A stretch of DNA of 55,679 nt, counting the filler, from Jimgerdemannia flammicorona (Eukaryota): the NCBI GenBank assembly GCA_003990765.1. It is 2 parts of 2 records of this genome, joined end to end, with 100 filler letters (N's around TTAATTAATTAA, not from the genome) between each part and the next. Parts side by side here need not be neighbours in the genome. Positions count along the whole stretch, not along the records: positions 1 to 27,796 come from RBNJ01000602.1; 1 more part is not named here. The stretch is one strand, 5' to 3'. Made by a program: the position numbers and the translations under genes. This document shows positions 1,561 through 53,113 of the stretch, in pieces; position 1 is the first letter of the stretch; each line of letters begins with the position of its first letter. A model generated the notes under the pieces. It was not told the DNA's origin, searched no databases, and worked only from the letters and a program-made list of their open reading frames with translations.

Positions 1561-2159
1561 TAGTGCTCTGAATGAGTTGATCTAAATTAGATTCAAATTA
1601 GATTCAAATTAACTCAGATAGAAAATAAGCCAATTTAAATTAATTTGTTTTGATTTTTAAAATTAGACAATAAAATATTTATATTAATAACTTGATATAT
1701 AATTATTTAATTTTAATAATCATAGTATTATTTAAAAGCTCTTAATAAGACCTTCCTAATGATACTAAGAATATTAAAATCAGATTATATATTATCAAGC
1801 TATTAAGAAAAATATTCTTTTGAATAAATTTTCAAAATTAGCAAATTGAATAATTTCTAAAATTAGTAAGTTAGACATTTTTCTTAATAACTTAACAATA
1901 TATAATTCAATTTCAATATTCTTGATATCATTAGAAAAGCCTTATCAAGAACTTTAAAATAATATTATAATTATCAAATTTAAATAATTATATTAAGTTA
2001 TTAATATAAATATTTAATTATCTAATTTTAGAAATTAAAATAATATTTTATTTAAATCAATCTAGATCAGCTTATTTTTTATCTAAGTTAATCTGGATGA
2101 AATTTAATTTAAATTAATCCAAATCCAATCTAGATTAAATTAACTTATTCAAAATACTA
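1561..2159. mobile_element. hAT-type MITE (palindromic), heavily mutated
   Basis: TIRs TAGTGCTCTGAATGAGTT / AACTTATTCAAAATACTA; degenerate 8-bp TSD TTTACAGA / CTTATAAG (differences are transitions); homologous to 45878-46417. Confidence 0.85.
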
Positions 2160-2229
2160 CTTATAAGTATAGTAAACCAATCTATTTTTTTTTTTTTTTT
2201 TTTTTATAGTCCCTTGGACCCTGTCTTTA

Positions 2230-5200
2230 TTACCAGTCTATGAATAAGTATACAATATCACCACCCACTAACCAATCCCCATCAGGGAGCCCCACCCCAC
2301 CTCTTCACATATAAAGACTACCCTCTTACTAACAACTCCAACTCTCCCACCACTCTGACCACAGATTTTCACCACCAAGCGGCACCTCCGACCCCCCTGC
2401 AGCCCCCAACCAAGCCACCAGCCTGTCAAGGTATTCTCCATAAGGAACTGCCACCTTGCTAACTGGCTCCCCAAGCTCTATCGCTTCTCCTCCTCAAATA
2501 CAAATAGCCAGTGACTGGCCAGCCCAACCCAAATAGCCAACGCCCAGCCTAGCGTAATCCACTCTTCCCCTACCCCTCCTATCAATCGATCCCTCAGGTC
2601 CTCCCACCTCTCCCGCACATCATCACCCCTACGCCTTACCCCTAAGCAGTCTCCAATGGCCTGCCAAAAGTCTCCCAACACCTCACACTCCCCTAGCCAA
2701 TATTCTGGCATCTGTACCAATCTCCCTTCCTGCCCTACATTATGGCACTCCTTGCAGTCAAAGCAGCTCCCGACAACAAGGTGTCCTGAGCGGAAGTTAA
2801 GCATCACATTCCTCCTCAGCACACGCCACCAGACTATCCAGTACTTCAGCGGCATCCAATTTTTCACTGCGGCACTCCAGGTCCAAACCCTATGCCAGTC
2901 CCACTCCTCACCAATTCCAACTCCTTGCCAACCACTAGGCCACAGATCCTGGCCTGGTCCCCTTTGGCATTTGATGCCATCACTAATGTTGAACTCCAGT
3001 AAAGGCATGCCTCCTAGAAGAATACTATCCTATCTCCACATCGCTGGGCCCCAAGCCCTCTCCCCCTCATCCCCTCGCCAGTAAATACCAATGTGGTGTG
3101 CCCCCTCAGCTATACCCCACCAGAAGCCTTTATATCTCAGTTGCACAGTATTCTGAAGCCCAACTAATGAAAGAAGATCACCAGTCAAGCCTCTAGGTGA
3201 TGTCCACCTCTCCCATATCTTCTGTAGCAAGGGGACCCAGCCCCCTCCATGCAACTCCACCGCCCTCCTCAGCCACCAAGCCCACAAGCAGTGTAGTCTT
3301 TTGGGGAAGTCCACCAGCCTAAGACCACCTCTTGCCACTGGTAGGGACAGAGTCTCCCAACCAATCTGACTCCGTCTGCCAGCCCAAATCCATCCCTTGG
3401 CCACCTTCACCAATCTCTTCACCACCCAGGCTGGGAAGTCCAGATGATAGGCCAAATACCACAGCTTCAGCAGCCAGTAAACATTCAAAATCAAGATCCT
3501 TCCTGCTAGAGAGAAGTGTTTACCCCCCCAACCCCACAGGTCCTCCTCCCAAATTTCAATCCTCTGCTCCCACCACAGTCTGGGCAAAACAGACCCATAG
3601 ACTGACAAATAGATGCCCAAGTACCGCACTGCCTCTCCGGTGGGGACAATTGTTCCAATAACTTCTCTACCCACCAAGCCATTGCCCAGCACCATTGTTT
3701 CACACTTATGCCAATTCAGCTTCACCCCAGAGTTCTCCTCATACCACTCCACTGTCTTCTGGAACTCCTCGACATCTGCAGTCACTCCCAAACCAACCAC
3801 CATATCATCCGCAAAGGCTCCAACCTTCCAGCCAACCCCATAGATAGAGAGCCCCACGATCCTCCGCTGAATCCTGTCCATGAGAGGTTCCAAGGAAAGA
3901 GCATACAAAATGGGGAACAGTGGGTCCCCCTGGGGCACTCCCCTACCCAGAGGGAATGCCACCCCTTGATACCCATTGCACATGAGCACAGCCCTACTCC
4001 TTTCCAGTAGGCTGACCATCGCTGACTGAAATGGGGCCAGAACTCCAATTCTATCTAATACTTTCGCCAGCCAGACTCGCCATACCCGGTCATAAGCCTT
4101 CTCCTGATCCAAGAAGACAAGATGCCCATCTAGTCCACAGGCTCGAGCACCTTTAATAACTCCATGTACCCAGGCTATGCCATCTCTAATGAGTCAACCC
4201 CCTATGAAGCCCCTCTGTTCAACACCCACAATTTGCTGGGCCACCTTCTGTAGCCTTGTGACCACCACCTTAGTCACCAACTTCCTGTCCATATCTAGTA
4301 ACATTATCGGCCGCCAGTTCTTCCAATCCTCTTGCCTTCCCTTGTTCTTATAAAGCAGTGTCACCAGCCCAAGATCTTGCTCCCCCACCCATCTCCCTGA
4401 CTGCAATATAGAGTCATATAGTGCTGTCAACTCCCCCAATATGCCCGGGACTCTAACCATTCGCTTCCAGAAGTCCCAGGGGAGACCATCCTCCCCAGGC
4501 GCCATACCCGAGGCTGTCGCGGCAAGAACCTGGTGGATCTCATCCTTCTTTACAGACATCACCAGGTCACCTAGTCCCTCAGCTTGTGGTGGGTGCCAAT
4601 CTTCTAATGTTTGGTCAATGGCTGTAGCATCTGCCCCACCCTCCTCCTCACTCCACAATCCACTCCATTATGCCTTCAGCATTCCAAGGATGTCCTGTAT
4701 ACCATGCACTAGTACATCATCTGAGTTAAGTACCCCTTCCTACCACTGCTGTACCCTTCTCACTCAAAGTGTCCTTGTGAGAAACTTGGAAGGCCTCTCC
4801 CCTTCCTCCACCCCCTGCCAATGAAGCTGTGCCACCAGGCCTTGCACCCTTGACTCTTCCTCTTCCCGCAGCACCTGTTGCAGTTCCCCAACCTCCATCC
4901 TCACCCTCATTATTCTCCAATCCTCTTCTCCCTCCACTGCTGCCAGTCTCGCCCACTCCTCCAGGAGCCTAGCCAATCTAGTAGAAGCCCAACGCACTTT
5001 CTGCCTTTGCTGCTTCCCAGCCACTCTGCCAACCTCACTCCAATACATCCTGGCCATCTCTTTCATCCTCATCCACTGAACCCCAATTGTGGCCCCTTCC
5101 TGCCACCAATTCACCACCTTCAGCTGAATATCTTTCGCCCACTCCTCCTACCAGGCCTCATCATTCAACAAGGAGGAATTCAGGTGCCAATGTCCAGGCC

Positions 5201-5924
5201 CATCTCTACTTCCCCCAAAATACCCCTGTCCCAAGAGGCCCCAGTGATCTGACCACGGACACCATTCTATCTCTATCACCTTCCAGACATTGTGGCCCCA
5301 ACAGTCAGCCATCAGAATCCAGTCAATCCTTGTCCCCAGACCTCCAGCCCAATGCGTATATACCCTCCTGTCCCCCCAGTGCTCCCTACCAGCATCCACC
5401 AGTACTCCTAGCCTTTCAACCTCCTCCCACGTCGCTAACCCCCCACTCCTGCTCTCCGCACCCCGTCTTCCATCAGTTCTATCCAGCTGTACATTCCGAA
5501 CCATATTGAAATCTCCTCCAAGCATATCCAACCCAGCTTCAGCAAGAATCCTACTCTCCAGGAGCCCCTTCACCCAATCCACACACTCCTCCCATATAGC
5601 AGGGCAGTAACAGGAGCCAACTGTGACTGGCTCCCAACCTGCTCGAATCCACTTACCCCAGACCAGTCTCTCTCCCCAGCTCCTCACATCCTTTATCTCC
5701 CCTCTGCCTTTCTGAACCAGAATCCCAACCTTGCTGTTCCAAATCGCCATACCACCCCATTTCTTAGTCTATTCCATCCTATCAGTATCATCCTCGCACC
5801 TGATATCCTGCAAGAGGAAGAGATCGGCCTCCAATCCCTTCAACCAAATAAAAATGTTCCTGTGTCTAACTATGCCCCTTAGCCCATTCACATTCAAAGA
5901 AAAAATGTTGGTTGTACTGTTCAT
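2230..5924 (-). pseudogene. LINE ORF2: APE endonuclease plus reverse transcriptase, with internal stops (3' end approximate)
   Basis: APE motifs IFSLNVNGL, LFLLQD, GGDFN, RIDWI, SDH; RT motifs APGEDGLP, NWRPIMLL, EQRGF, DQEKAYDRV, GVPQGDPL, AFADD, YLGI. Confidence 0.95.
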
Positions 5925-5943
5925 AATAAAATATGGTTTGTTC

Positions 5944-7985
5944 TCAATCAATCCCTACTGCTCCATGCCCCTCTCCTCCTGTGCCATGTCCAGATTATGT
6001 TCAGCCATCACCTCCTCCTCTTCAGCCCTCTGAGCCTCCAGTCCAGCCAACAGCTCATTCATCTCCTCATCAGCCTTCTCCTCAAACTCCTCTCGGTACT
6101 CAATGCAAGCCTCCTGCCAAAGCTACAACCCATGATGCCTGTTCCAACAGTACTCAACCTTCTCCCCAGCGACCACCGCCAACTCTGCCTCCCTCTCCTT
6201 ATCCACCTCATACCCTTCCTCCTCCAGATACACCATGAGAATTTCCGCCTTCAGTGCCATCGCCACTCCTTTCTCTTGCAAAATTCTCGTCTAGTGCTCG
6301 TCACCCATCCCATACAAGTCCACCTCCCCCAGCTCTTCTGCCACCAGGTTATTCATCATCCAGCACATCCAAAGTAGGTTCCCCACCTCCTTTCCACCAG
6401 GGGTCACTGGCCTCCCTCCATCCAGCATTGTGGTGTCCGCTCCCATACTTATATTCTCATCCCACACCTCCGGGACATCCACCAGTTCCTCCTCCCCTGC
6501 TGCCACTACTTGGTCCCCATCCAATGCCTCCGGAATACTGAATTTCACCTGCTGGGTCCCCAGCATCGTCACATCCTCCCCAGGCTTATTCCTGGAAGCC
6601 AGGCCATGCCTGATAAGAGGGGAAGGGGTGGGAGAGTTCTCCCAGACTTCATCCCAAACCTCCAAGATGCCATCAGCATATAGGTCACTAATCTTCACCT
6701 CCTTAGCCTTCTCTGACCCTGCCCCTTCGTTCCCACTCCTCTCACCAGCCCAGACACTCGCTCCGGCCCCTTCTGTATCTGTCTTCATACTCGTATCCTT
6801 CTGTGGTCCACCCCCCAGCTTAGCCAGCAGATCCTTCTGCCTCTTCTGCCTCTGAGCCCTTTCCCACTGCACCTTGTCCACTCGAATCCTCTTTCCATCC
6901 ATTACCTCCAGGAGCATTGACTCCTCGAAAGTCTTTCAGGCCTTAGCTCGCCGTTCCACAGCCCCATCCAGCTCCTCCAGCGCTTTCAATAAATCTTCCT
7001 CCTCTTCTTCACTTCCTTTCACTCACATCACCTTACACAGGAAAGTCCCCCAGACCAACACCGAAGGCCAGTCTCTTGTCTTCCCGGTAGCCTCTTTCCC
7101 AGCCAGCCAAATCCTCACATCCATATCCCTAGTTCTGAGTGTGGTCCCTTCCCAGACCCTGAATCTGATATCCACCACCTCTCCATACTCCGCCATGACA
7201 TCCTCCACTCTCTTCCTCGTCTCCATCACCGTCACCATGGGTACTCCTTTCACCAGCAGTTAGACCACCCTTGGATCCCATTTCAAACACCTCGCCATCG
7301 GAATACACACCTCCCCAACCACTAACCCAACCTTCAGTGCCTCCTCCAGTGGTTCCACCTTCTCAAATTCCACCTCCACCCCCTCCAGTCCCTTTAGAAA
7401 CTTCACCAAAGTCACTCCCGCCACCTGCTTAGCAATAAGCCCCAACACCATTTTTGCCATCACTGCTAAGCCCCAGAAGCACAGCATGACTGCGAACGCT
7501 GAGATCGACTTCTTGAGTAACGGAGCCACTGCCAGTCCCATTACACTATCTGCCAGGTCCCTGGGCCTCATGCCCTTCCCACTGCTTGGCTCATCATCAG
7601 CAGTCCCATCTAGATTTTTTTCCAGATCACCTGTCACACCCCCATCAGCAGTCCCCACCTCAGCCACTACCCCCCCAGCTCCACTCCTATGGCCCTCCAG
7701 AGAGGCACCCCCAAGAGGTTGCTGCCTGGAAGCTGCCATCAGTACCTTCCCCCCTCTCAGCCAGCTCTCCAGTCCAGCTCCCTGCCGACCCCTCTTCACC
7801 TTCTCCACAAAGCTCACCCTGCCAGACCCTTGACCTCCAGCTCTGCCCCCTCTTCCACCATGGCCCCCTGCCAGCAGGCCCCTCATACTTCCCCCCAAGC
7901 CGGGGCCTCTCCCTACTTGCTGCCATTCAAACGCTCCAGGGCCACCCTGCCTAGTATGCACCTCCGGATGCTCATTGGTCGCCAT
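5944..7985 (-). pseudogene. LINE ORF1 (RGG-rich N-terminus, RRM-like middle, coiled-coil C-terminus), broken by stops
   Basis: ORF pieces 7260-7985, 7023-7253 and 6291-6917 lie upstream of ORF2; same segments recur in the second copy at 31.2-33.25 kb; domain labels are inferred from composition. Confidence 0.8.
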
Positions 7986-8112
7986 GATACTAGTAGCTTT
8001 TCTCCAGAAACTATGTCAAAAGTGTTGCCAAAGGGTTGTGTAACCTGAATGTTACCGGAGAAAGATGCTGATAGTAAACCAATCTAAGGTAAAGAGGGTA
8101 AAAGTAGGAAAA

Positions 8113-11039: not shown

Positions 11040-11104
<65 letters not shown>

Positions 11105-12546
11105 TTTAATGGACTCATGTCCCACAGATTTTTATTGGAAGGGAACCTAGACTATATAGGCCAAAACCCTCCCCCACCACCCACCAAGTACTGCCCCCCT
11201 ATTAACCTAGGCTAGCTATTGTCCAGCAGCTCAACCATGTCAGGCACAGCAGGGCTGATAAGCCCGCACCTCATTCTGCGCACCATGCTCTCTCTATCAC
11301 CAGGGGAAACCCAACCATATGCCAACGACTGAAAGCATATGCCTGAGAACCCAACATATGTACAAGGCCATGCCCAAGCCGAATAGAATAGCCCCTGCCA
11401 CCCCAAAGAGAATGACAGGTAAATAAAAACCCTCATCAAAGCACAACATGGTGGGTAGGGCCTGGTTCTCCCAGATGAGGTGAGTAAAGGACTTACATGT
11501 GAACAAAGTATCATTGTTACTAATATTATCACATACAATAGTAATGATTTGATTATTACTAGGTAATAAATCATCTATTACCAGCTCTAGACTTTTTGCA
11601 AGATTGATACCTATACATATATATTATTTTACTGATATTTACAAAGTCTAAGATAATATCATACCACTGTCAATCCAATAGGCTATTATTTCAAGAAAAG
11701 CATTAATATTAATGTCCAATATCTAACAATCAAGTATAAGTAATACCTTTGACTTAAGCCCTGCTAGTCTTGCTTTTACTTAAGTCTACAATAGTTCAAA
11801 TTCTTTTTGAATAACTCATGAAATTGTATCAGCTGATAGAAGGACCAGATCAGGGTATAATATGTGAAAGAGATATTTGAAGTCAGTATTTTTGATATTA
11901 GAGAATGGCTGATATCCAGTGACAATAAAGTTGGCAATTAACCAATAGAAATTTCCATCACTTAAAGTCTTGCTAGTATATTCTTATTTGTAATAATAAA
12001 ATTTGATGAATTATTTTTCTAATAACCTCCTAAGTACTTCCTGAATTCCATTTTATCCATACTCATAATATCTTTCTTAGACCAGCAAGAATTCTCAGCA
12101 TACTGGAGAGGTAAGAGTATGATATTATAATACTTCCAGAGATGTCATTTAAGATTATTAATATTACTGTCCTTCAATATATAGCTCCAAGTTATGTAAT
12201 AGTTATAACTGATGAGCTTACTTTGTAAATTCTATTTGAATAGAGAGATATGAGACTATATTAGAACCTCAATCACTTATAACTGACCACCCTTATGACC
12301 AACCATTCTTATAACTATGAGACCAACTACTCCTATGAATGTAACCATTAGTATAATATATAAAACTACCTTTGTGGCATGATTCCATACCCAGCTATTA
12401 TCAGGTTTTGTTTTTATTTTTATTTTTATGCTTGTTAGTAATAATGAACTGATGGAGATATCTAATATATTCTCTGATATATCCTCTGATATATCATTCA
12501 ATAGTTCTGAGATTTCTCCTAAATATACTTCTTGATCTTTAGACAT
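9770..12546 (-). pseudogene. hAT transposase, decayed
   Basis: BED-finger start SWVWNH (~12390); DNISNN (~11520); HICCFGYMLNIV (degenerate CxxH, ~10990); LDIIIR*SS..ML (DxxTRWNST); dimerisation domain YPNLS*IACNYLAISAISIPSEYIFSIAG (~9820-9910). Confidence 0.9.
11041..11501 (-). mobile_element. Element X, 5'-truncated copy inserted in the hAT transposase
   Basis: PolyT 11041-11103; perfect TSD AACAAAGTATCATTG at 11026-11040 and 11502-11516. Confidence 0.92.
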
Positions 12547-16249: not shown

Positions 16250-16252
<3 letters not shown>

Positions 16253-16328
<76 letters not shown>

Positions 16329-17484: not shown

Positions 17485-18087
17485 TCAAATTTGCTCTCTT
17501 TCTCATTGCCACCTTAGATGGAAAATCATTACTATCCTCACTATTTATCTCCAAATCAGATGACTGCTGGTACAATAGTGATATACTTTTTCTTGATAGT
17601 GGAGAATTAAATAGAGGAATAATCACAATACTAGGAGCAGAAATACGTCCTGTTTCCTCTATTTTGTTTTCCCTTTTATGCTTTCTTTCGCGTTTCTACA
17701 AGGTATAATAGGGTCAATAAGATTGTTAGTTGGAACTTTTTTTTTTTTTTTTAATTAATTCCAAAAGAAACTTACATATTTTTCATCGGATTTCTCATGG
17801 TCCGGCAACGCGTGCTTTAGTGTCTTTATTGCTTTATCAGTCACGATTGCTCGGTTTCATCCATGGTGCCCACCAACGCGCGTTTAGCGTATTTTAACTG
17901 TATAGTAAAATTAGTACCTTATCAACATAAAATTAATTCACCAACCTGTAGCAATTCAATTTCTGTCTCATAACGTCTTCTATTAACTGACTCCCAGAAA
18001 GCATTAACACCTTCGGAAGACTTCTCATTCTTGTAATAAAAAGTGTAGAAAAGGATGTTATTACTTTTCGGGCACTGTGTTATAAAA

Positions 18088-18318
18088 GACTGAGATGGGT
18101 GACCATGACACGGGACGTAGCCTGACAACCGGCCAGGGCGTAGCCAGCCAGTTGCGTCATGGCAATGGAACGTAGCCTATTCAAGAGCTCCCGATTGAGG
18201 ACGTAGCTCACTCCCCAGCCAAGGCGTAGTCGGCCGGTTCCTCGGGGTTTGTCAACACGCCATATAACACGGAGTCATAATGGGACGTATTCTAGCCCTC
18301 GAACCACCCATCTCAGCC
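18088..18318 (-). ncRNA. Putative structured intronic RNA in intron 1 of gene A
   Basis: Perfect 12-bp inverted repeat CTGAGATGGGTG (18090-18101) / CACCCATCTCAG (18305-18316) enclosing six CUACG/AUACG motifs, most of them in short hairpins. Confidence 0.6.
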
Positions 18319-18575
18319 AGTAATAAGGATTAATACAGACCTCGTAGTTTTCAAGAGAGACTTCAGCTTTAGTGCGTTTCTCCTCGGATTTGTCGTGGAG
18401 CATTTTCCCGAGGACTTTAAAATATGACCTGTGCTCTTCCACTTTGTTTTCGAAATCCAGCGCGTCTTCTCGATATTTCAAATAGTCGAGCAGTGACCAC
18501 GAATTGTTTTCTTCGAAGTAAGATTCCGCGTTCGGCATAGTGGCTGAATCACGAAATATGCGATATGTAGAAGAT

Positions 18576-19751
18576 TTAGTTCGGTACTGTTAATTTCTGA
18601 GTTATGGCGTACATACAAAACCCATTTTTAGTTCGGCAAGATCAATTATCATTGACAAGAACGAAACTTGGGCATACAGCAAGTGACTCACCTCATCCGG
18701 GCTTGGGGCGTTTCCGCCGTTGCGATTTTTCTTTGTGCCCTGTAAATAATTTAAAATTTTATGCAGGTTCGCTGGGATAGGGAAAAAAGGACCGGCAAGT
18801 GTTTCGGGAACGTTTTATTCAAGAACAACCGAATACTATACCTCGTCTTCCTTGCTCGCGGCTATGGACTGCTTGCCGCTGGACGTCGCTTTGACCTTCG
18901 GCGTGTCCGAGTCGCTCTCCCATTCGTCAAGGTCACCGGTTATAGAAGAATTTTGCTTACCAGCCTTATACAAACACAAATCAATAGTTTCAAAAAAAAA
19001 AAAAAAAAAGAATAAAAAAAAAAAAAAAAAAAAAAAAAGGGGCATTAGAATCACTATATTGACGTCGGCAAATACGTTGTGTCATAGCACTCCTCTGACT
19101 AACCTTCTTTCGGTTCGCATAGCGGATTTCGATACTGTTCCAAAACTCGTCAACATCGAGGCATTTGACTCGATGATTCTATAAAGGAATTAATATGATA
19201 AAGGCGATCCAAAAAAAAAAAAAAAAAAAAAAAAAAAGGACTGACAAGGCAGACCACAACGGGATCTAATGAACGCCATAAGGTCAGGTGGCACGTAGGC
19301 ACCCGCCATAGTTGTGTGAGCATGTTGCCCCTTCTCGGGACTCTGGGGGGCCCCACCTCCGTAAGAGAGGCCGATCCGGCCAAGCTTGCGGACCATGATG
19401 GGATGACACCCTTAAAGTGGACGGCACGTAGGCATCCACCGTAATCATGGAAGTATATTTCCCCTTCTCGGGACTTAACAGGGCCCTCCATACTGCCTGC
19501 CAGCCGGTGACGCTTTAAATAAGAATACTCACCTGAAATTTCTGCAGCAAACGTTTAACGCCTTGCTTGACATTGTCCACTTCGTGTTCAACCATGAATT
19601 CAAGGCATTTGCGGAGAGCGAAGGCCTCAGACCGGAAATCGTAAGTAAAGTCGATTTGATTCTGTCGGTGGCGATAGAAGTCGAGAAACCTATAGTTCTC
19701 GGGCGAATTTTGTTGGAAGTACGCGTATGCACTCGCTAAAGCTGGTTCCAT
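18576..19751 (-). CDS. Orphan gene B, predicted ~161 aa, five exons, unknown function
   Basis: Exons 19533-19751, 19104-19178, 18842-18964, 18692-18739 and 18576-18596 with GT-AG phase-0 introns give an open frame (last exons less certain); exons 1-2 parallel gene A (YF..LD(F/Y)..R...F...E and N......V..FW.S). Confidence 0.65.
19239..19505 (-). ncRNA. Putative structured intronic RNA in intron 1 of gene B
   Basis: Closing stem GGCUGGCAGGCAG / CUGCCUUGUCAGUC followed by C and a 27-U tract; two colinear 64-nt repeats (19290-19353, 19423-19486) with compensatory changes. Confidence 0.65.
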
Positions 19752-19899
19752 CGTTCAAAGAGACGCGTCAAGTGATGTTTTTCACCTAAAATATTTTCCA
19801 ATCGGTGACGTCATCAGGATAGCGACGTGTGACAAGAAAGATATTAGTGGGTTTGAAGGTTATGAAGTTGGTGGTTTGAAGATGAAGGCGCTTGCGACA

Positions 19900-22400
19900 G
19901 AGTCAATGAACTAAAGGAAAACTTAAGCGAGAATTACCAGAAGTAACTCAAGAACCGAGGAAAAAACGAAAATATCAGAAGAGTAGAATATTGTACGGGT
20001 ATATATAGGAGTAACTTCGTGTATTCTTTAAAATGTTCTTGTAGAAGAAATTGCATATGGTAAACAATAAAAACATGAATGAATACAAGAAAGCTCTCTA
20101 TTTTTTAGATGTAGGCTGGTTGCAGTTGCTTCGCCAAGGTTCCCAAGCTCTAACAAGACATTTTTTTGATGGCATAGCTCCATGGTAATATCAAAAGAAT
20201 GCCTAAGTGAAAAACCAAGATGTTTATTGATATTAACGTGACTACCTTAAGCTATGCCGAAGTCCCAGTCTAGTGAGAAATGATTGTGTGACTCTTTTTA
20301 CCTGCTACAAAACTGTTCACGTGATTTTTTAGCAGGCCTAGAAGAAGATAGCTTTTTTTTTTTTTTTTTTTTTTTTTTAACAGACTCATAGTTCCATGGA
20401 TTTTTATTGGAAGAGAACCTAGACTATATAGGCCAAAACCCTCCCCCACTACCTACTGAACAATATCTCCCCATTAACCTAGGCTACTAAATTGTCCAGT
20501 AGTTCTACTGCTCCAGCTATGCCTATCAAACACTAGCTACATTGACTCCTATGATATAGACCAGACTTGTCTGCTCACCAGGACTGGATCATCATTTATA
20601 TATAAGAGCACACCTATACGTCAGATCTAGCAGTACTAGGACTAAATAAAGAATAGTCCTTTAAACCCCAAAAGAAAGCCTAAGGTAAAGAAAAAACCCC
20701 CCAACCAACTAATAGAGAGCAAAGTGGATTCAAAGTGGGTGAGTAAAGGACTTACATGTAGAACCTTCTACAAAGGACTTACATATGGGCTAGGGCCAGA
20801 AAAGACCCCACTCCTACTCTCTGAGCCTGTGGGCCTTGATTACATTACCATATCAGCTCCTGGTTTTAGTCAGATACTGTTAAATGAGGAAGACCCCACT
20901 CTCTAAGTCTGCGGGCCTCAATTGTATTACTACATCAGCTTCTAGTTTCAGTTGAGTACAGCCAGGATACCAGCCCCTACACTACCCCACCCTCTACCAG
21001 CCAATTGAAAGGCCCCACCAAAATATTGTCTGCCCCAGCCCCAATGATCACCTCCAGCCTAGCACCCCACTGATTCACTATTATCACCCTTCCTCCTATC
21101 TATGATGGCCATCTCCTCTCCCATCTCAATAATACCCAAAAAACAGTCACCTATGCCAAAACTATGCTCGCTGAGAAGCTCGCCAAAGCCAGAGGACCCC
21201 ACCACAGATACTAAGAACTTGCAGATAACCTATACTGAGCACTTGATACCCAAGATTGGCCAACTCTCTACATAGCCCAAGATATATCAAAACAATACCA
21301 TATTGGTGATAGCAAAAGGAAGAAGATGCTGCATCAAAACAATATACTCCAGATGTAGCCAAAGATACCAGAAACTACAAAAAAGTAGAGAAGACACTGA
21401 TCTGATACCAATAAAAGGACAACTCATCACCATTGCCCTCCTCCCACTATGCCCATACAGGTATAGCAAACCAACCTAAGGTAGAGGAGATAATAATAGG
21501 GGAAAGGAGACTTGGAAGGTTGCCTACCAAATCTTGTAACTAATAAGGTAGCAGAGAAAGGAGCTAACTTGTAGAAGAAGATAGCACTTTGTATGTCCTG
21601 AAATATGATATGTTCCACAAATTATAGTATCAGCTAACTCTATATATTTAAATCAAGAGCCTCTAAACTGATTTATGTAATATTTATCAGAGCTTATAGA
21701 ATGACTTGCAATTTAAAGCTCATAAAGAGAAAGAGATTTAAGATAAATAAAGATCACCTAACCAAAGTCAAATTAGAATAAAACTATTATAATAGAAATA
21801 CCAAATTGATGAAAGAGCTAAGAAAACTTATTAACTAGAATTATTCTATACTGAAAGATGAGATATTATTCTACAGTATCAATACAGTTACCTATTATAG
21901 TTATAACTGAGCTTAAAATATCTATATATCTTATTTAGATTAATAGATTAATAAAATATATTATCTTAGTACTCATAAAGTATATTTGTTTAGTATCTAA
22001 GATAAAGCTATATATGAGCAAATTAATTATATATTCAATAAGTATGAACTTTTTAGAAAAGGTTCAAATAGTATACTTAGTCTAGTTTTTAATAGAATTA
22101 AATAATTAAATAAAAATAAAAGTTATCTATAATAATATAGGTAGATAAAACAAAAATAATACCACTCTTTAGTTTTACCCATATCTGATAATTGCTAAAT
22201 ATTATAAAACTATTAAGTTTAATTTTATAGTTCTGGACTATATTAAAGTTAAATATAATTACAGTTTTGGTCTAATTAAAAGGCTTTATTACAAAACTAT
22301 AGTAGATTATATAGATTATATTACAGATATAGTAAAAAGATCTAACATTATCAGATTAATAAAGCTTTATTAGGAAAAAAAACTTCAGTTTATATTTACT
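19900..22400 (+). pseudogene. Decayed Sola-like DDD transposase (DNCxGQNKN type), split by an X insertion
   Basis: Degenerate motifs after reverting transitions: HGN..R.P, P.TDLC..C (~21660), YSYD.AQN, INY..DE.E...KG.N, DN.GGQNKNN (~22130-22160), F.VPGH.K..CD..FG.IK; boundaries approximate. Confidence 0.6.
20353..21571 (-). mobile_element. Element X, full-length variant copy with internal duplications
   Basis: PolyT 20353-20378; perfect TSD TAGAAGAAGATAGC at 20339-20352 and 21572-21585. Confidence 0.92.
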
Positions 22401-25200: not shown

Positions 25201-25242
<42 letters not shown>

Positions 25243-27796: not shown

Positions 27797-27896
27797 NNNN
27801 NNNNNNNNNNNNNNNNNNNNNNNNNNNNNNNNNNNNNNNNTTAATTAATTAANNNNNNNNNNNNNNNNNNNNNNNNNNNNNNNNNNNNNNNNNNNN
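27797..27896. other. Assembly gap with artificial TTAATTAATTAA spacer
   Basis: 44 N + TTAATTAATTAA + 44 N. Confidence 0.95.
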
Positions 27897-46896: not shown

Positions 46897-47372
46897 TGTG
46901 ACAGTACAGCCAGATTTGGAAGAAGGAAATAGGGAATAGACACTTGATCATACTCATTCCCAAAGTAGTATAGCATTATAGTTAGCAGTCCTCGATTCCA
47001 ACATTGTCTAATTTCTTAGACATTGTCTAAATTTTAGACATTATCCAAATCGAATACTCTGATTTAGTATAGTCTTTAGATATTGTCCAAATGTTTTGAC
47101 AAAGTCCAAATGACTCATTTATTACTTAGCCACTCTCTCATAGCTAGCAAACTTGTATAAATAACCCAGTATCTTCAAGTGAATAAACCTCAGATCGAAA
47201 TAGTTCAAAGCAAAGAGATAGCAAAGGAACTAGTAAGCCTGTGGGCAGATACACTTCGAACTCACCCACCCTCCCCTGCAACTTCAAGAGACTCTGTGAG
47301 AGTCAGAACAGTCAAGTTTTCAAGATACAGAAATCTGACGTACTTTCAAGAGTAAGCGTCTGCTATGTTACA
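46897..47372 (+). repeat. 5' LTR
   Basis: TGTGAC...GTTACA, 476 bp, direct repeat of 53151-53626. Confidence 0.97.
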
Positions 47373-47375
47373 ACT

Positions 47376-47393
47376 TGGTGCCCATTGGCTGGT
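47376..47393 (+). promoter_or_regulatory. Putative primer-binding site
   Basis: TGGTGCCCATTGG... begins 3 nt after the 5' LTR; primer tRNA not identified. Confidence 0.7.
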
Positions 47394-47486
47394 GATTCAA
47401 GACGAATCCCTCACTTTCAAGCTGAACAACAAACAACCACCACTACCCGAACAACCATACAAACCAAGCCCCAATACCCAGACAAG

Positions 47487-50400
47487 ATGGATATGAGACT
47501 GCCAGTATTCCATGGATATACTTCAGATGAATCAATCATCACCTTCATTGATGATTTCAAGCAGTATGCTGCTGTAAGGACTCTGACAGCAGCACAGCAA
47601 GTAGCCCTCATGTCCTTCAGCCTACAAGGCCCTGCCAGAGCAGCATTTACAGCCGCAACCTATGCAGGAAATGATGACGATGCCATACTGACGGCATAGA
47701 AGACCTGGCTCCGAAACACATATTACACAGATGAGATCAAGCAAGCCCTGAAGGATCAGCTCAATACAATGTGCCAAGGAATGAGTGAGGATCCAAACAT
47801 ATTCTATACTAGAATTTGATATCAGATAATCCTTGCAGATTATGCTGCTGCTACCCGAGATCAAGTAGCTGAAGCAATCTTCATGAAAGGAGTCCATCCA
47901 GAAATAGCCATGGCCATCCACTCATCACCAGTGATTCTGGATCTGCTACAAAGAGTCACCTATGCTCAGCGATACTGGATAGCCAGACACCCACAAGACC
48001 ATACAATGGAGAGAGTTACAGAAGTCAGAATTGAGGCACCCAAGGCAACTAGCATGATCCCCACTACAATGATCAATCAAAACACACCTCAGCCAAAAGC
48101 TACTGAGCAGCAAAAGAACAGCGACCCTATGGAGGAACTTGCCAAAAGGTTTGCCAAAATGACTGCCCACCTGGGAGATGTGGTAAAGGAAATTCGAGGA
48201 AGAGATTGCCACCCTGTTCAGAAGTTTGCCGCCACCTCAGACAAGAAGAAAGGTACCTGCTACAGCTGCGGAGAAGAAGGCCACTACTCCTATAAATGCA
48301 TGAGCAAAACCAAGCGCAAGGCTCAACCAAGCAATGCGACATGAAACAAGGAGTAGGCCAATATAATTACCTTCAAGGAGATCGGAGATTCTGATGAAGA
48401 AGAATGGGAGGCCTATCCTGCTCAGACCACCAAGAAGGATGTTTGCAAAGAACCCTATAAGAGACCGCCAGGAAGACCCAAGAATCCAGTGGAAAAACAG
48501 ATGGAAACTGTCACAGAAAGTCAAGCCGAAGAGATAGACCAAGATATCGAGCTGGAGCAAGCAGTTCAAGATATCATCCGAGAAACCACTCCAGCCAGTG
48601 AAGGAGAAAAAGAAAAGAAGCTTCGCAAGACCAAGACCTTCAAGTATGATATCTTCAAGGATCTCAGTCAACAAAAGGTCAATGCAACCTTTGGTCAGCT
48701 CGCAGAAATCCCAACATTCAGACAGCAAATGAGGTTTGGACTTGCCGAAACAACCAAGGAACAAGGATGGAAGATAACTGAGGCCAATAATGTTCAAGAG
48801 GACTCAGGAGAAGAAAGTGAGAATAATCGCAAAACCTCTGCTTATGTAATATGCCAAATTGAGGATCGAGTCTTTGAAGCCACCATTGACACAGGAGCAG
48901 GAGGATGTCTCCTCAGTAAGAAAGCAGCAGACTGCCTAGGTTGAAATGTGGAAGAAGCAACTAAGCTAGTATTCATCACAGCCGATAGCACAAGAGCTAC
49001 ACCTCTGGGAAAGATCCGAGATGTTCCCATCAAGATTGGAGGAGTAACAATCCCAGTAGATGTAATCGTAACCAATGCCACCAACTATGACATCCTCATC
49101 GGCAATCAATGGCTTCACAAAGCCAAGGCGGTAATCGATCTCAATGCCCAGAAGATGCAAATCACCTACCGAGAACAGAAGATATGAATTCCCATCAATG
49201 TCAACAAAGGAGTCCTGCCCGATATGGAGGAAGAAGAGAGCGAGCAAGAGAAAGCTTATATGGTGACTACCGCAAAGAAGAAGAAAGTCGGATGGATGAG
49301 TGAAGAAGAATGGTGCAATAAGATCGCAGAAGGTTATGCCCTACAAGGAGTCTGTCCTCATGGAATCAAGATGTACTATATGGAGCATGTCAATGATTGC
49401 TACCAGTGCACCATCAGAACCAGGAAGATCTACCAGGAAAGAAGTCAGAAAGCTCTCGAAAAACAGATCAGAGAAGAAGAGAAGGAGGAAGATGATGAAC
49501 CACCAGCCCTCCTGGAGGACAGTGATGATGAAGAAGAAATCAAGGTCAAGATTCGAAAAATCCACCCTGATGTAGTCTTGCCGGAATATAAGTCAGAAAA
49601 TGCAGCCGGAATGGACATCGCTACAGTAGAAGAAACTGTACTGGAACCCCAGACAACCACCCTACTCGCGACTGGACTGGAGATGACCATCCCAAAGGAT
49701 CATGTCGGGATTCTCAAGACAAGAAGTAGCTTGGCTAGAAGCGAAATTACAATCGAAGGAGGAGTCATCGATTCAGACTATACTGGAGAAATTCTACTCA
49801 TTGCTAGGAACCACAATCCTACAATTCCATTCCCAGTCAAGAAGAAGGACTGATTGGCACAGATGTTGATCTTCCCAATCATACAGCCAAGGATCATAGA
49901 AGTCAAGAATCTAGAGGAAATGAAAAGAGGAAAGAAAGGATTTGGATCCACAGGAAGAGGAGTATTTGCCAGCACCAAGATCACCGAACTCGAGCATAAG
50001 AAGGAGGAAAACATGAGCAAGCACAGTTACACCATTGGAAACGAATTCCCACTCAAGGAGGAACTCAAGAAAATACTCCACAAATTTGAGGATGTCCTTG
50101 CCATGGATTTCAAGGATATCAAGAGAAAGACCCCACACTACTATCACGAGGTAGATACTGGAGACACCGAACCAATTTACCAGAAAGCAAGACCTGTCCT
50201 GCCAGCCTACCGAGAATGGCTTAGAGAAGAAATCAAGCAGATGGAAGAAGCCGGCATCATCAAAGAAGCCAGTAGCCCCTGGTCTTCACCAGTTGTACTA
50301 GCCCCGAAAAAAGGAAGCAAACCTGGAGAATTTGCCCCAAGGCTCTGTGTCGACTACAGAAAGCTTAATGCAGTCACCAAGAAGGATCGCCAACCACTGC

Positions 50401-51476
50401 CGCTCATTAGCGATATCCTTATAACACTAGGAGACGAAGCACAGTACTACAGCACCTTGGACTTATACTCAGGATTCCACCAAATCGGACTCATGGAAAT
50501 GGCAAGTGAAAAGTTAGCCTTCATCACCCCAGACAGAACCTACATCTACCTATGAATGCCATTCGGAATGTGCAATGCACCAGCAAGCTTTTAGTGAATG
50601 ATGAACAAAATATTCCACTATGACATGGGAAGATGGATGATGGTCTATGTCGATGATGTAATCATCTATAGCAAGACAGCTGAGGAATATCTGCAGCACA
50701 TACAGTAGATAATGGAGAGACTAAGACAACATGGCCTTTATATCAAACCCAAGAAGTGCAAGTTTGCGAAAATCAAGATCTCCTATCTTGGCCATATCAT
50801 CAATCGAGATGGAACACACATGGACCCCCTCAAGATACAAGCGGTAGTAGCATACCTAAGGCCCACTACCGTCACAGAAGCCCAAGCCTTCATGGGACTT
50901 GCCTCCTACTATCGCAGATTCATTAGAGGATTCTCCAACATTGCAGGCCCAATCTACGAACTCAACAAGAAGGATACCAAGTTCCAGTGGACTGGCAGAC
51001 AACAAAAAGCATTTGATGAACTCAAGGTCAGACTAACTCAGGCACCCATCCTTAGATGACCTAATTGGACCCAAGAATTTATCCTTTAGATGGATGCAAG
51101 CGCATAGAGACTAGGAGCAGTCCTAGCTCAAAAAGAAGACAAAAAGGAGTATGTTATTGCATATCTTAGCCGCGGAACCCGAGGGGCTGAAAAAGAATAT
51201 GAGTCCTACAAGTTGGAATGCCTTGCAGTCATCTGGGCTGTGGAAAAGTTCCACTACTATCTGGCTGGAAGACACTTCACCATCCAGATGGACCACTCAG
51301 CTCTCACCTGGCTACTGACAACTGGACAACCCAAGGGAATTTATGCCAGATGGATAATGAAGTTACAAGCCTATGATGTAACCATCATGCACCGCCCTGG
51401 AAGAACAAATTCCAATGCAGATACTCTCTCACAGATATCTCGAACTACCTCCAACCAACAAATCAATCATGAATAA
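47487..51476 (+). pseudogene. Single-frame gag-PR-dUTPase-RT-RNaseH polyprotein with more than a dozen nonsense mutations
   Basis: CYSCGEEGHYSYKC knuckle; IDTGA protease; dUTPase motifs AAGMDI, RSSLA, GGVIDSDYTGEI, AQML, RGKKGFGSTG; RT SPWSSPV, RLCVDYRKLN, YVDD; RNase H DAS, ECLAVIWAV, DHSAL; all pieces in one frame. Confidence 0.95.
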
Positions 51477-52662
51477 GGAGCTCTACTACGGAATCATCAC
51501 ATATCTGAGACAGCGAAAGATGCCCCAACATCTGGAAGAATGGACACAAACGATTATCAACAGGACATGGAAATAATTCGAAACCGATGGAGAAACACTG
51601 AAGAAAGAAAAACTACTAGTCATACCAGAACATAAGAAGGAGCAAGTGATGAAATCAGTACATGAACTTGGCCACCTAGGAGGAACAAACACACATGACA
51701 AGGCAAGAAGAACAATATGGTGGCCAGGAATGGAGGAAGATATCAGACAATTCGTTAAAACATACAACAAATGCCAGAAACAGAAACAAGACCAACGAAA
51801 TCAAGCCTCAGGATCAGCACACATAGAACCAGTACCATTCGCCCACATTGCAATGGATGTAATCGGCCCTCTACCCTTGACCCTGACTGGTAACCGATAC
51901 ATCATTGTCATCGTAGACCTTTTTACGAAGTGGATAGAAGCAGGACCTCTCAAGGAAGCCAATGCACAGTCAATCGCTGATTTCTTCCACAAGGAAATCA
52001 TCTGCTGGTTCAAGACCCCAATACAAGTAACTACAGATAGAGGAACCAAATTTGTGAACCAGTTCTTCGAAGTTCTCTACAAGAAGTACAAGATTCAGCA
52101 CATTCAGACCACAGCCTATCACCCTCAAGGAAATGGACAAGTAGAAAGGACCAACAAGACCCTCAAGAATGTTATTGCCAAGATCTGTGATAACTACAAG
52201 AACTGGGATCACTATCTGCCAATAGCATTATCTGCTCTCTGGGATATCTGATCACAAAGCACCCACTTTACCCCTTGAGAAATGCTGTTCAGAGAAGAAT
52301 ATTCTCAAGGAACCCTATCATCCAATAGAGACGCCGTATGGAAACATGTAGACATAGAGATACAGAGACTACACCAAATCAGGAAGAAGGCTGAGAATTA
52401 CATAACCAAGACACAGACACTACAACAGAGGAATGCGGAAAAAATCCACAAGCCCTTGGAGATTATCAAGATAGGAGACAAGGTCCTGGTGTATTGGAAC
52501 ATGGTAGAAGCTTCATGGTCACGAAAACTGGAGCCCAAGTGGGAAGGACCTTACCTTGTGCAAGATATAAAAGGGACCACCTTTTGGCTACGAAAACCCT
52601 CAGGCACCATAATCCCCACCACCATTCACCGAAACCGACTCAAGAAATATCATGGCCAGTAA
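51469..52662 (+). pseudogene. Integrase ORF (HHCC, DDE, GPY), separate frame
   Basis: ATG 51469; HELGHLG, WWPGM, MDVIGPLP, TDRG, YHPQGNGQVERTN, WEGPY; three internal stops. Confidence 0.92.
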
Positions 52663-53113
52663 CAAAAGTACTGCGATAGCACTCAAGATCACTAGTGCTG
52701 CCCAAAGAGCCATCGAAAGACAATGGCACACCACCGAGCCTCTGACCATAGAGCTATACTATGAGGATATTCAGAGTATTGTGCAGACTCATCTCTCTCG
52801 GATCTCACACTTTAGAGCCTATCAGTATCGTGCAGAATTCCAAGAGTATTTCAAGCTTGGACAGGTGCTCAATCAGGATCCAGTAAAGACCAAGGAGGAC
52901 TGGATCATCGAGTGTCAACTCTCCCACTTACAGATCACTATTGCCAAAAGGATCCACAAGTTATTTTGAGAAGATGAAGCAGCGATAGACCACCTGAGAG
53001 GAGTAACTCCCACCGACTTCGAGAAAGTGAGAAGACATCATTGGGAAACAGTCATGCAGCAAATCGCACAGTACAAGACCATACAGACCGTTGAAGCCTG
53101 GGAGTTTGAATAG
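52652..53113 (+). pseudogene. Extra 3' ORF (153 codons, one internal TGA), unknown function
   Basis: MASNK...EYFKLGQVL...AKRIHKLF*EDEAAIDHLRGVTPTDFEKV...WEFE*; ends 27 nt before the PPT. Confidence 0.8.

Follow-up and report, generated by a model that had tools for sequence, protein, structure and literature searches.

We analysed a 55,679-nucleotide (nt) stretch of DNA from Jimgerdemannia flammicorona (GenBank assembly GCA_003990765.1), henceforth referred to as the window (55.7 kb), and describe two units, B and A, that lie in tandem on its minus strand. Each unit opens with an exon that encodes an N-terminal protein domain, followed by an intron 1 in which a GC-rich block is bounded by pairing ends. 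Taken together with homologous loci, the evidence makes it very probable that these blocks are copies of a family-specific, modular, structured RNA element that is under selection in the first spliceosomal intron of a multicopy Mucoromycota gene family.

All window coordinates of the units and elements refer to the minus strand (Table 1). The unit layout proposed in an earlier, sequence-only reading of this DNA, with weakly similar first exons and phase-0 first introns of the lengths listed, agrees with translation and with a BLASTP comparison of the exon-1 peptides of A and B (9 of 31 residues identical, E 9e-6, single comparison). The second exons are also alike, each having N as first residue and an FW motif inside. 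Unit A exon 1 is 100% identical to part of a deposited protein (P0001, hypothetical protein of J. flammicorona), whose model strings together B exon 1, block B read through as coding, B exon 2, A exon 1 and a retained A intron. This model (window 17946-19751) translates most of block B and ends inside the retained A intron, and a model from a second strain (P0006) translates block B likewise. The units are paralogous, as proposed earlier; P0001 and the spliced contigs described below are compatible both with two tandem genes and with a single gene that carries a tandem duplication. An acidic leader (..DEWESDSNPF.., ..NRNGxNAPSPDE) precedes the N-terminal domain in some relatives (P0060, P0069). 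Leader-like peptides occur in the window at 18586-18700, in B exons 3-4 just upstream of A exon 1, so unit A may begin there, or B and A may be one transcript.

Table 1. Coordinates of the units, elements and modules in the window (aa, amino acids; cDNA, complementary DNA; X1, sequencing run, R2 and R3, covariance models, P1, H1 and P3, helices, all described in the text)
Feature	Position	Strand	Description and basis
Unit B exon 1	19533-19751	-	codes for the family's N-terminal domain (73 aa); translation, cDNA contig
Unit B intron 1	19179-19532	-	354 nt, phase 0, GUGAGU...AG; joint 19178/19533 in X1 contig, plus-strand ends CT..AC
Unit B exon 2 (NHRVKCLDVDEFWNSIE...)	19104-19178	-	second conserved block of the family; translation and both joints in cDNA contig
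Unit A exon 1	18341-18538	-	66 aa, diverged copy of the N-terminal domain; translation
Unit A intron 1	18030-18340	-	311 nt, phase 0, weak donor GUCUGU, ...AG; position taken from homology to B
Unit A exon 2 (NEKSSEGVNAFWESVNRRRYE...)	17946-18029	-	translation; covered by X1 paralogue contig
Unit A intron 2	17898-17945	-	48 nt, GU..AG; re-reading of the gap in the X1 paralogue contig
Element B	19239-19505	-	closing-stem arms 19493-19505 and 19239-19252 around two modules
Element A	18088-18318	-	closing stem of 14 bp; the diverged modules inside have six CUACG-type loops
Module B1	19387-19454	-	P1 CCAUGAU/AUCAUGG, H1 loop CCUACGUGC, P3; R2 42.3 bits, E 6e-9
Module B2	19248-19321	-	P1 CACAAC/GUUGUG, H1, P3; R2 45.6 bits, E 8e-10
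Last module of element A	18097-18166	-	P1 CCAUGAC/GUCAUGG, diverged relative of B1; R3 14.7 bits, E 0.1

Both introns contain the GC-rich block with paired ends that had been placed 22-27 nt past the donor. Block A starts 22 nt past the donor, its arms (GGCUGAGAUGGGUG / CACCCAUCUCAGUC) form a stem of 14 bp, and a repeat search returned an inverted-repeat pair in it (I1, 22 nt, 82% complementary). Block B starts 27 nt past the donor, its arms (GGCUGGCAGGCAG / CUGCCUUGUCAGUC) pair over 13 bp with one bulge, and it contains an internal repeat (D2) of 64 nt at 75%. As to the repeated CUACG hairpins reported for both blocks, element A has six CUACG-type loops, and ACGTAG (CUACGU on the RNA) has 5 sites in the two blocks, out of 10 ACGTAG/CTACGT sites across the 55.7 kb. 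For element B, the end duplex has an energy of −21.2 kcal/mol in sense and −16.3 in antisense orientation; for element A, the values are −27.9 and −23.7 kcal/mol, respectively. A U run follows each block, as the earlier reading had it (4 U after A, 28 U after B), but is not conserved in homologues. Searches with blastn found no sequence likeness between A and B and no further copy of either block in the window. A and B alone could not show conserved structure, because two foldback insertions would equally give unlike inverted repeats.

The units had been described as orphan genes, which they are not: with B exon 1 as query, 79 cluster representatives were matched at E up to 1e-3 among 1.84 billion proteins. 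Judged by these sequence relationships, A and B belong to a large multicopy gene family known only from early, mycorrhiza-forming fungi of the Mucoromycota. Its members share an N-terminal domain (YF.ET.PE.YRFLDFY.YR.KQ.DFTFSFQKEA...) and, in spliced models, a second block, (G/N/K)HR....DVD.FW..IE; the (G/N/K)HR...FW motif is present in 21 collected family proteins. Members with a source name belong to the Endogonales genus Jimgerdemannia and to the Glomeromycotina genera Gigaspora, Dentiscutata, Cetraspora, Acaulospora, Diversispora, Rhizophagus, Entrophospora, Racocetra, Paraglomus, Funneliformis, Geosiphon and Ambispora. Pfam gave no family-relevant match at the curated cutoff for the exon peptides and 17 long members, and a sequence-profile search of the PDB returned 0 relatives. 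A structure model of one member (P0020) is confident over residues 1-90 (predicted local distance difference test about 90), where a helical bundle is followed by a long helix, and poor in its C-terminal half; a fold search with it returned only single long-helix or coiled-coil matches with Z of about 6 or less. None of the Pfam, PDB-profile and fold searches found an RNA-binding relative of the N-terminal domain. In a protein atlas, the B exon 1 query had no usable match and the P0020 query matched only unnamed Mucoromycota clusters. The family alignment had 0 confirmed matches in viral contigs, where the core pattern had 0 matches as well, and 0 were confirmed among 9 pattern matches in prokaryote genome contigs. 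One member, the 1037-aa tandem-repeat protein P0007, matched residues 19-45 of the N-terminal domain seventeen times. The Pfam scores of P0007 for Temptin_C and Baculo_p24 stem from its tandem repeat, and we set these matches aside as low-complexity artefacts by their look.

Homologous loci were retrieved from metagenome contigs with exon 1 alone, which yielded at least five confirmed loci from 592 pattern matches. Among the matches listed, all four loci that reach past exon 1 (L001-L004) have the element in intron 1, with intron lengths of 211, 176, 281 and 287 nt, respectively. L003 and L004 are near-identical, so these four loci represent three independent cases. An exact DNA pattern from block B had 0 matches in metagenome contigs. 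Since block B is open in one frame, its translation was used as a protein query; it had four matches at 42-46% identity, and three of these four proteins, one of them from Acaulospora, also hold family exon 1 or exon 2. Two stretches of this "peptide" are invariant, SMEGPVKSREG and L.RSLDPVV, which corresponds to about 33 nt of near-identical RNA at each end. Peptides derived from the element stand directly after exon 1 in 33 of the 98 collected family models, two of the 33 being the window locus or its allele in another strain. As they occur in all three frames, they are best read as non-coding sequence translated by mistake. The element was found in Jimgerdemannia, Acaulospora, Paraglomus, Funneliformis, Gigaspora, Geosiphon, Ambispora, Diversispora, Entrophospora and Cetraspora, and the models that bear it span the Paraglomerales, Archaeosporales, Diversisporales and Glomerales in addition to Jimgerdemannia. 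Homologues thus do have the intron structure, both in the four loci and in models from many genera.

The splice donors of intron 1 differ among members (GUGAGU in B, GUCUGU in A, GUAAUU, GCAAAG and GUAAGG), and that of L002 is a GC donor (GCAAAG, L002:640-645). In 19 read-through models (alignment A2), the first intron codon is Ala (GCN) in 13 and Val (GUN) in 4. This may mean that GC-AG introns are very frequent here, or only that gene-calling software breaks down on them.

Five independent elements (A, B, L001, L002 and L003) were compared. Their closing stems start 22-35 nt past the donor and end 46-71 nt before the acceptor; the stem sequences are unrelated, and the ends pair in all five. 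Within the closing stem lie one, two or more modules, each a three-way junction of 68-74 nt made of a helix P1, a hairpin H1 and a short hairpin P3. A module runs from P1 (6-7 bp) through the junction strand UAY into H1 (8 bp, with a 9-nt loop YCURCKUGY), then through the junction strand YUAY into the P3 hairpin (2-3 bp) and back into P1. P1 and H1 are also predicted by RNAalifold. There are two modules in B and one each in L001 and L002; L003 and L004 contain one recognisable module plus a diverged half, and in A the last module is recognisable. Covariance models detected additional modules neither elsewhere in element A nor in the first halves of the L003 and L004 elements. P1 is CACAAC/GUUGUG in B2, L001 and L003, CACAGC/GUUGUG in L002, CCAUGAU/AUCAUGG in B1 and CCAUGAC/GUCAUGG in A, and the likeness of the last two was read by eye. 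Also by eye, a small hairpin precedes the core, CCC[GAGAA]GGG in B1, B2 and L001 and, flipped, GGG[AAGGAA]CCC in L003 and L004. The H1 and P3 loops of one module often share a motif of 7-9 nt, such as UCUGCGUGU, present twice in L003, or GGCUACG in A; modules of this kind are L001:913-981, L002:690-758, L003:781-849 and window 18097-18166, and the motif differs between paralogues. Such a repeated loop motif would fit paired binding sites, or internal duplication.

We assessed whether pairing is kept where sequence changes; the core was available in six nucleotide copies, five of them independent, in addition to block A. Across 7 modules, 94.6% of 111 cells pair, compared with 85.1% in shuffles (0 of 500 reach the observed value) and 32-54% with slid partners. 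At 9 of 16 pairs both sides have changed with pairing kept, a count that 0 of 500 shuffles reach. The proposal that structure is conserved while sequence diverges is therefore upheld on a broader set than the two units from which it was drawn. A covariance model trained on L001-L004 only (R2) found exactly B2 and B1 when searched on both strands of the 55.7 kb, with no non-standard pair marked and the next match at 8.5 bits; B1 has three double changes in P1 and still no non-standard pair. With a second model (R3), trained on L001-L004 plus B1 and B2, the last module of A was the best match outside the training set in 63.7 kb searched on both strands. It ranks first at E 0.1, and block A is accordingly taken as a diverged relative that is not significant alone. 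A codon-constrained check of the pairs in the element-translating models had 81.7% of 120 determined cells pairing vs 38-60% with slid partners; this check is noisy through gapped alignments, and we give it little weight.

The fold belongs to the sense-strand transcript, as indicated by two measures. Of 96 cells in the core helices, read as sense RNA, 82 are Watson-Crick, 8 G-U and 1 A-C. The two ends also form a stabler duplex in sense than in antisense orientation in all five independent elements.

Constraint was measured as identity in the 6 pairs among B, L001, L002 and L003. The core module is 62-80% identical, exon 1 56-67% and exon 2 54-63%, and the intron flanks are 46-60% identical vs a shuffled baseline of 45-55%. 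Because the exons evolve fast, they account for part of the contrast in which the element appears more conserved than its coding exons. Between the close pair L003 and L004, substitutions amount to 2.1% in the element, 4.0% and 6.1% in the exons and 1.4% in intron 2. The excess of exon divergence over intron 2 and the element in this pair suggests diversifying selection on the protein.

Transcripts of the locus are represented in a public run (X1) as contigs, not reads, and the spliced joints present in them imply that X1 holds cDNA. Intron 1 of B is removed exactly at 19178/19533, with 354 nt skipped, and the same contig joins exon 2 to exon 3. The third intron of B (102 nt) is likewise spliced in contigs, and a 239-nt cDNA contig spans 19533-19746 of B exon 1 with 0 differences. 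Another contig, of 322 nt and without differences, runs from inside block B over the donor, with 30 of its letters exonic. A 1115-nt contig of X1 is unspliced through the whole of intron 1 of unit A and lacks 17898-17945; being only 91% identical to A, it comes from a paralogue and not from A itself. The gap in this alignment was given as 60 skipped letters with 11 letters between, and these 11 correspond to 17887-17897, which leaves 17898-17945 as the missing part. The paralogue contig has kept intron 1 and lost intron 2, so RNA that retains intron 1 after intron-2 removal exists. Both RNA forms are therefore found, one with intron 1 spliced (B) and one with intron 1 kept and intron 2 removed (the A paralogue). 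Two soil runs add one contig each: a 253-nt contig in an RNA run (X2) lies wholly inside block B (19271-19523, 3 differences), and a 151-nt contig in a DNA run (X3) lies in block B. Across intron 1 of A no contig forms a joint; we read this, like the stretches that the soil runs leave uncovered, as evidence neither way.

These observations agree with the earlier proposal of a functional RNA tied to the gene of this N-terminal domain, as the element occurs family-wide in the same intron. How it acts is a matter on which we can offer a tentative reading, the likeliest of those considered: the element may control splicing in cis on the pre-mRNA, setting the removal or retention of intron 1. The closing stem would loop out an insert of 110-270 nt and leave about 73-96 nt between the splice sites, which is an ordinary intron size here, so intron 1 would still be spliceable. 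The conserved loops and junctions would then serve as a landing site for a putative factor, possibly the family's own N-terminal domain, that balances removal of intron 1 against keeping it. If intron 1 is kept, translation would stop after the N-terminal domain, the retention product being 87 aa in unit A and 78 aa in unit B by translation, as the sequence-only reading had calculated; if it is removed, the full-length protein would be made. Donors are weak or unusual in several members, including GUCUGU in A and GCAAAG in L002. A more ambitious version, which we think improbable as a whole, would place the modules in a new class of cis-regulatory RNA of eukaryotes, as a splicing switch that responds to a protein or a ligand and predates the Glomeromycotina-Endogonales split. 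In it, the loop motifs of the paralogues (CUACGUG, CUGCUUG, CUGCGUG) would co-evolve with their own fast-changing N-terminal domains, so that each copy senses its own product and toggles between the short and the full-length protein.

Several points weigh against a selected RNA element that controls splicing. We infer the regulatory effect and the binding factor, and conserved sequestering of the 5′ splice site is not visible in the members examined. Covariation was measured on 7 modules, of which about 5 are independent, and against a structure drawn from these very sequences, which inflates both controls. A model trained without block A gives it no better than E 0.1, and pairs that include A are near baseline everywhere, with the core at 54-58% vs a baseline of 50-52%. 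Of 8 substitutions at paired positions between A and the X1 paralogue, 6 leave pairing intact, about the share expected from transitions alone. The thermodynamic stability of whole introns is unremarkable (z of −3.07 for A, −1.09 for B, +0.27 for L001, −1.95 for L002 and +0.05 for L003). Between L003 and L004, ordinary intron parts differ at 1.4-1.9% and are thus as conserved as the element. On the RNA side, X1 was typed as RNA by guess only, and the 30 exonic letters of the unspliced B contig are one below the bridging bar of 31. The apparent enrichment of GC donors may also be an artefact, because gene callers miss them.

Part of the same evidence could be read as a stable non-coding RNA, with the excised, closed element of about 110-270 nt acting in trans and the gene being mainly a carrier. 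Intronic snoRNAs carried by host genes are the model for such an arrangement. The closing stem would shield the ends of the RNA, its loops and junctions are conserved as in RNA genes, and its distance to the 3′ splice site stays within 46-71 nt in all loci; the X2 contig lies wholly inside block B. This contig is, however, a single one from one run and gives neither ends nor abundance. The loops differ among paralogues, which would be odd for one trans-acting RNA, and the host exons keep open frames. No Rfam family, among them riboswitches, ribozymes, snoRNAs, snRNAs, SRP, RNase P/MRP and miRNA precursors, was matched in the blocks or introns: cmscan against Rfam 15 returned 3 weak matches in window 17500-20200 at E up to 10, none of them in the blocks, and 2 in L001-L004 at E up to 5, both outside the introns, in line with the earlier remark that no known family was recognised. 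By eye, conserved C/D or H/ACA boxes were not seen, nor were kink-turns, kissing loops or decoy splice or branch sites conserved across members. We therefore consider a trans-acting RNA unlikely.

The element might instead be a tolerated passenger, an old insertion in an ancestral intron that persists only because the closing stem keeps the splice sites near enough for splicing, with functionless sequence inside. This would explain why closing stems of unrelated sequence are present in all five independent elements and why the collapsed intron, at about 73-96 nt, resembles ordinary introns here; yeast zipper stems work in this way. It leaves unexplained, however, that distant members resemble each other more in the core than in their coding exons, that the inner helices P1 and H1 have compensatory changes, and that junction and loop letters are invariant. 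We hold this explanation to be quite unlikely.

We assign a low probability to a self-spreading mobile element, such as a foldback miniature inverted-repeat transposable element (MITE) or an introner-like element, seen in these introns by chance. The terminal inverted repeats, found in 5 of 5 elements, are a trait of foldback MITEs; a GC-rich body amid AT-rich surroundings and tandem internal repeats would suit them too, the genome is rich in transposons (reverse transcriptase, integrase), and the two soil runs cover only block B of the 1.9-kb stretch searched. Within the material covered (the window, metagenome contigs and collected proteins), location speaks otherwise. There are 0 extra copies in the 55.7-kb window by blastn and three covariance models, and the copies found elsewhere all lie in intron 1 of the family, among them the four loci fetched through exon 1 alone (same spot in 4 of 4 among the matches listed) and the three of four block-B protein matches that carry family exons. 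No direct repeat borders A or B, while a 2-3 nt TA-type duplication is possible in the AT-rich flanks. The intron flanks are not conserved, which indicates that the whole intron is not the repeat unit. The outcomes that the sequence-only reading had named for MITEs, target-site duplications (TSDs) and copies outside the family, were thus both sought: no TSD is visible at A or B, and each copy found, in the window or beyond it, is in family intron 1. Against an introner-like element in particular stand flanks at baseline (46-60% vs 45-55%) around a core at 62-80%, and the differing donors.

A DNA-level signal, for instance an intronic promoter, enhancer or recombination signal of a variable multigene family, is highly improbable. 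Plasmodium var introns offer a parallel for such signals, and both the conserved intron in a fast-evolving multicopy family (L003/L004: exons 4-6%, element 2.1%) and the repeated short motifs (ACGTAG six-fold in A) could be accommodated; yet compensatory double changes keep the pairing, and together with the 8 to 1 excess of G-U over A-C and sense duplexes that are stabler in 5 of 5 elements they form a signature of a transcript, not of duplex DNA. Equally hard to credit are single modules that act as small self-cleaving ribozymes or bind a ligand as aptamers, in either case of a new class: hammerhead-type and purine-type folds are comparable in size and topology to these tandem, roughly 70-nt three-way junctions with conserved junction strands, but no Rfam ribozyme or riboswitch model matches, P3 is limited to 2-3 bp, nothing ties the host family to metabolism (no Pfam domain) and the intron is spliced intact in cDNA.

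Further candidates were set aside. ARAGORN, run for a tRNA or a tRNA-derived short interspersed element, found 0 genes in 17500-20100, and a polymerase III gene is unlikely as no U run directly follows the L001, L002 and L003 elements. A coding alternative exon is ruled out by the reading of the element in three frames, a stop inside the L001 element and a 1-nt deletion in the core of L004 relative to L003. The donors do not fit a U12-type intron (by eye).

Elsewhere in the window, retrotransposon bodies lie at 2100-8000 (minus strand) and 47200-53000 (plus strand), with a reverse transcriptase at 3030-4193 and a Gypsy-type zinc knuckle, dUTPase, reverse transcriptase and integrase at 47820-52251. 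The 2100-8000 region has a strong skew of C over G (about −0.4 to −0.5). Homopolymer tracts of A or T, from 20 to more than 60 nt long, occur in AT-rich spacers and introns (11041-11107, 16250-16324, 25204-25242, 18990-19040 and 19209-19237). Runs of N occupy 27797-27840 and 27853-27896.

Arbuscular-mycorrhizal fungi and Endogonales are hard to study genetically. A 70-nt module that can be found by a covariance model is a handle on the control of a large, fast-evolving, lineage-specific gene family in them. It also has a use in annotation: at least 33 of the 98 family models translate the element as protein, and with a model of the element, annotators could correct intron 1 in these genomes. 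Our literature searches found neither the element nor the family described, and no description of such intron RNAs from arbuscular-mycorrhizal fungi or Endogonales. Fungal candidates for structured RNA motifs, several of which lie in introns, have come from comparative studies (PMC5640933, PMC8216456). In the main texts of these two papers, the terms Rhizophagus, Glomeromycota, Mucoromyc-, zygomyc-, Mucor and Rhizopus have 0 occurrences each.

We compared the element with known systems that share parts of its form. It resembles foldback MITEs and introner-like elements in its terminal inverted repeats, strong self-folding and location in introns, and differs from them in having no TSD, no copy outside family intron 1 in the material examined, and flanks that lie outside the repeat. 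Zipper stems of long yeast introns connect a site shortly downstream of the 5′ splice site with one that precedes the branch region, which shortens the effective distance. The element shares this layout in outline, its closing stem linking positions 22-35 nt past the donor to positions 46-71 nt before the acceptor. Whereas zipper stems are not known to have conserved inner sequence, the modules are the best-conserved part of the element.

To our knowledge, conserved structured regulatory RNAs in spliceosomal introns are rare in eukaryotes and comprise the thiamine pyrophosphate (TPP) riboswitch and a handful of autoregulated ribosomal-protein genes. The TPP riboswitch (Rfam RF00059) steers splicing from within fungal introns (PMC5882874). 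Like it, the element is a structured RNA within a fungal spliceosomal intron, for which we infer a role in splicing; unlike it, the element has no Rfam match, resides in non-vitamin host genes and bears no sign of a ligand. Among the autoregulated genes are yeast ribosomal-protein genes of the RPL30, RPS14B and RPL22B type, which have autoregulatory intron structures. As in RPL30-type introns, a conserved fold lies in the gene's own first intron near the 5′ splice site, spliced and unspliced RNA both occur, and retention would truncate the product. The binder in the RPL30 type is the gene's own protein, whereas that of the element is putative. The RPL30 type belongs to a housekeeping gene, whereas the element is modular, with one to three three-way junctions inside a closing stem, and is spread through a large lineage-specific family.

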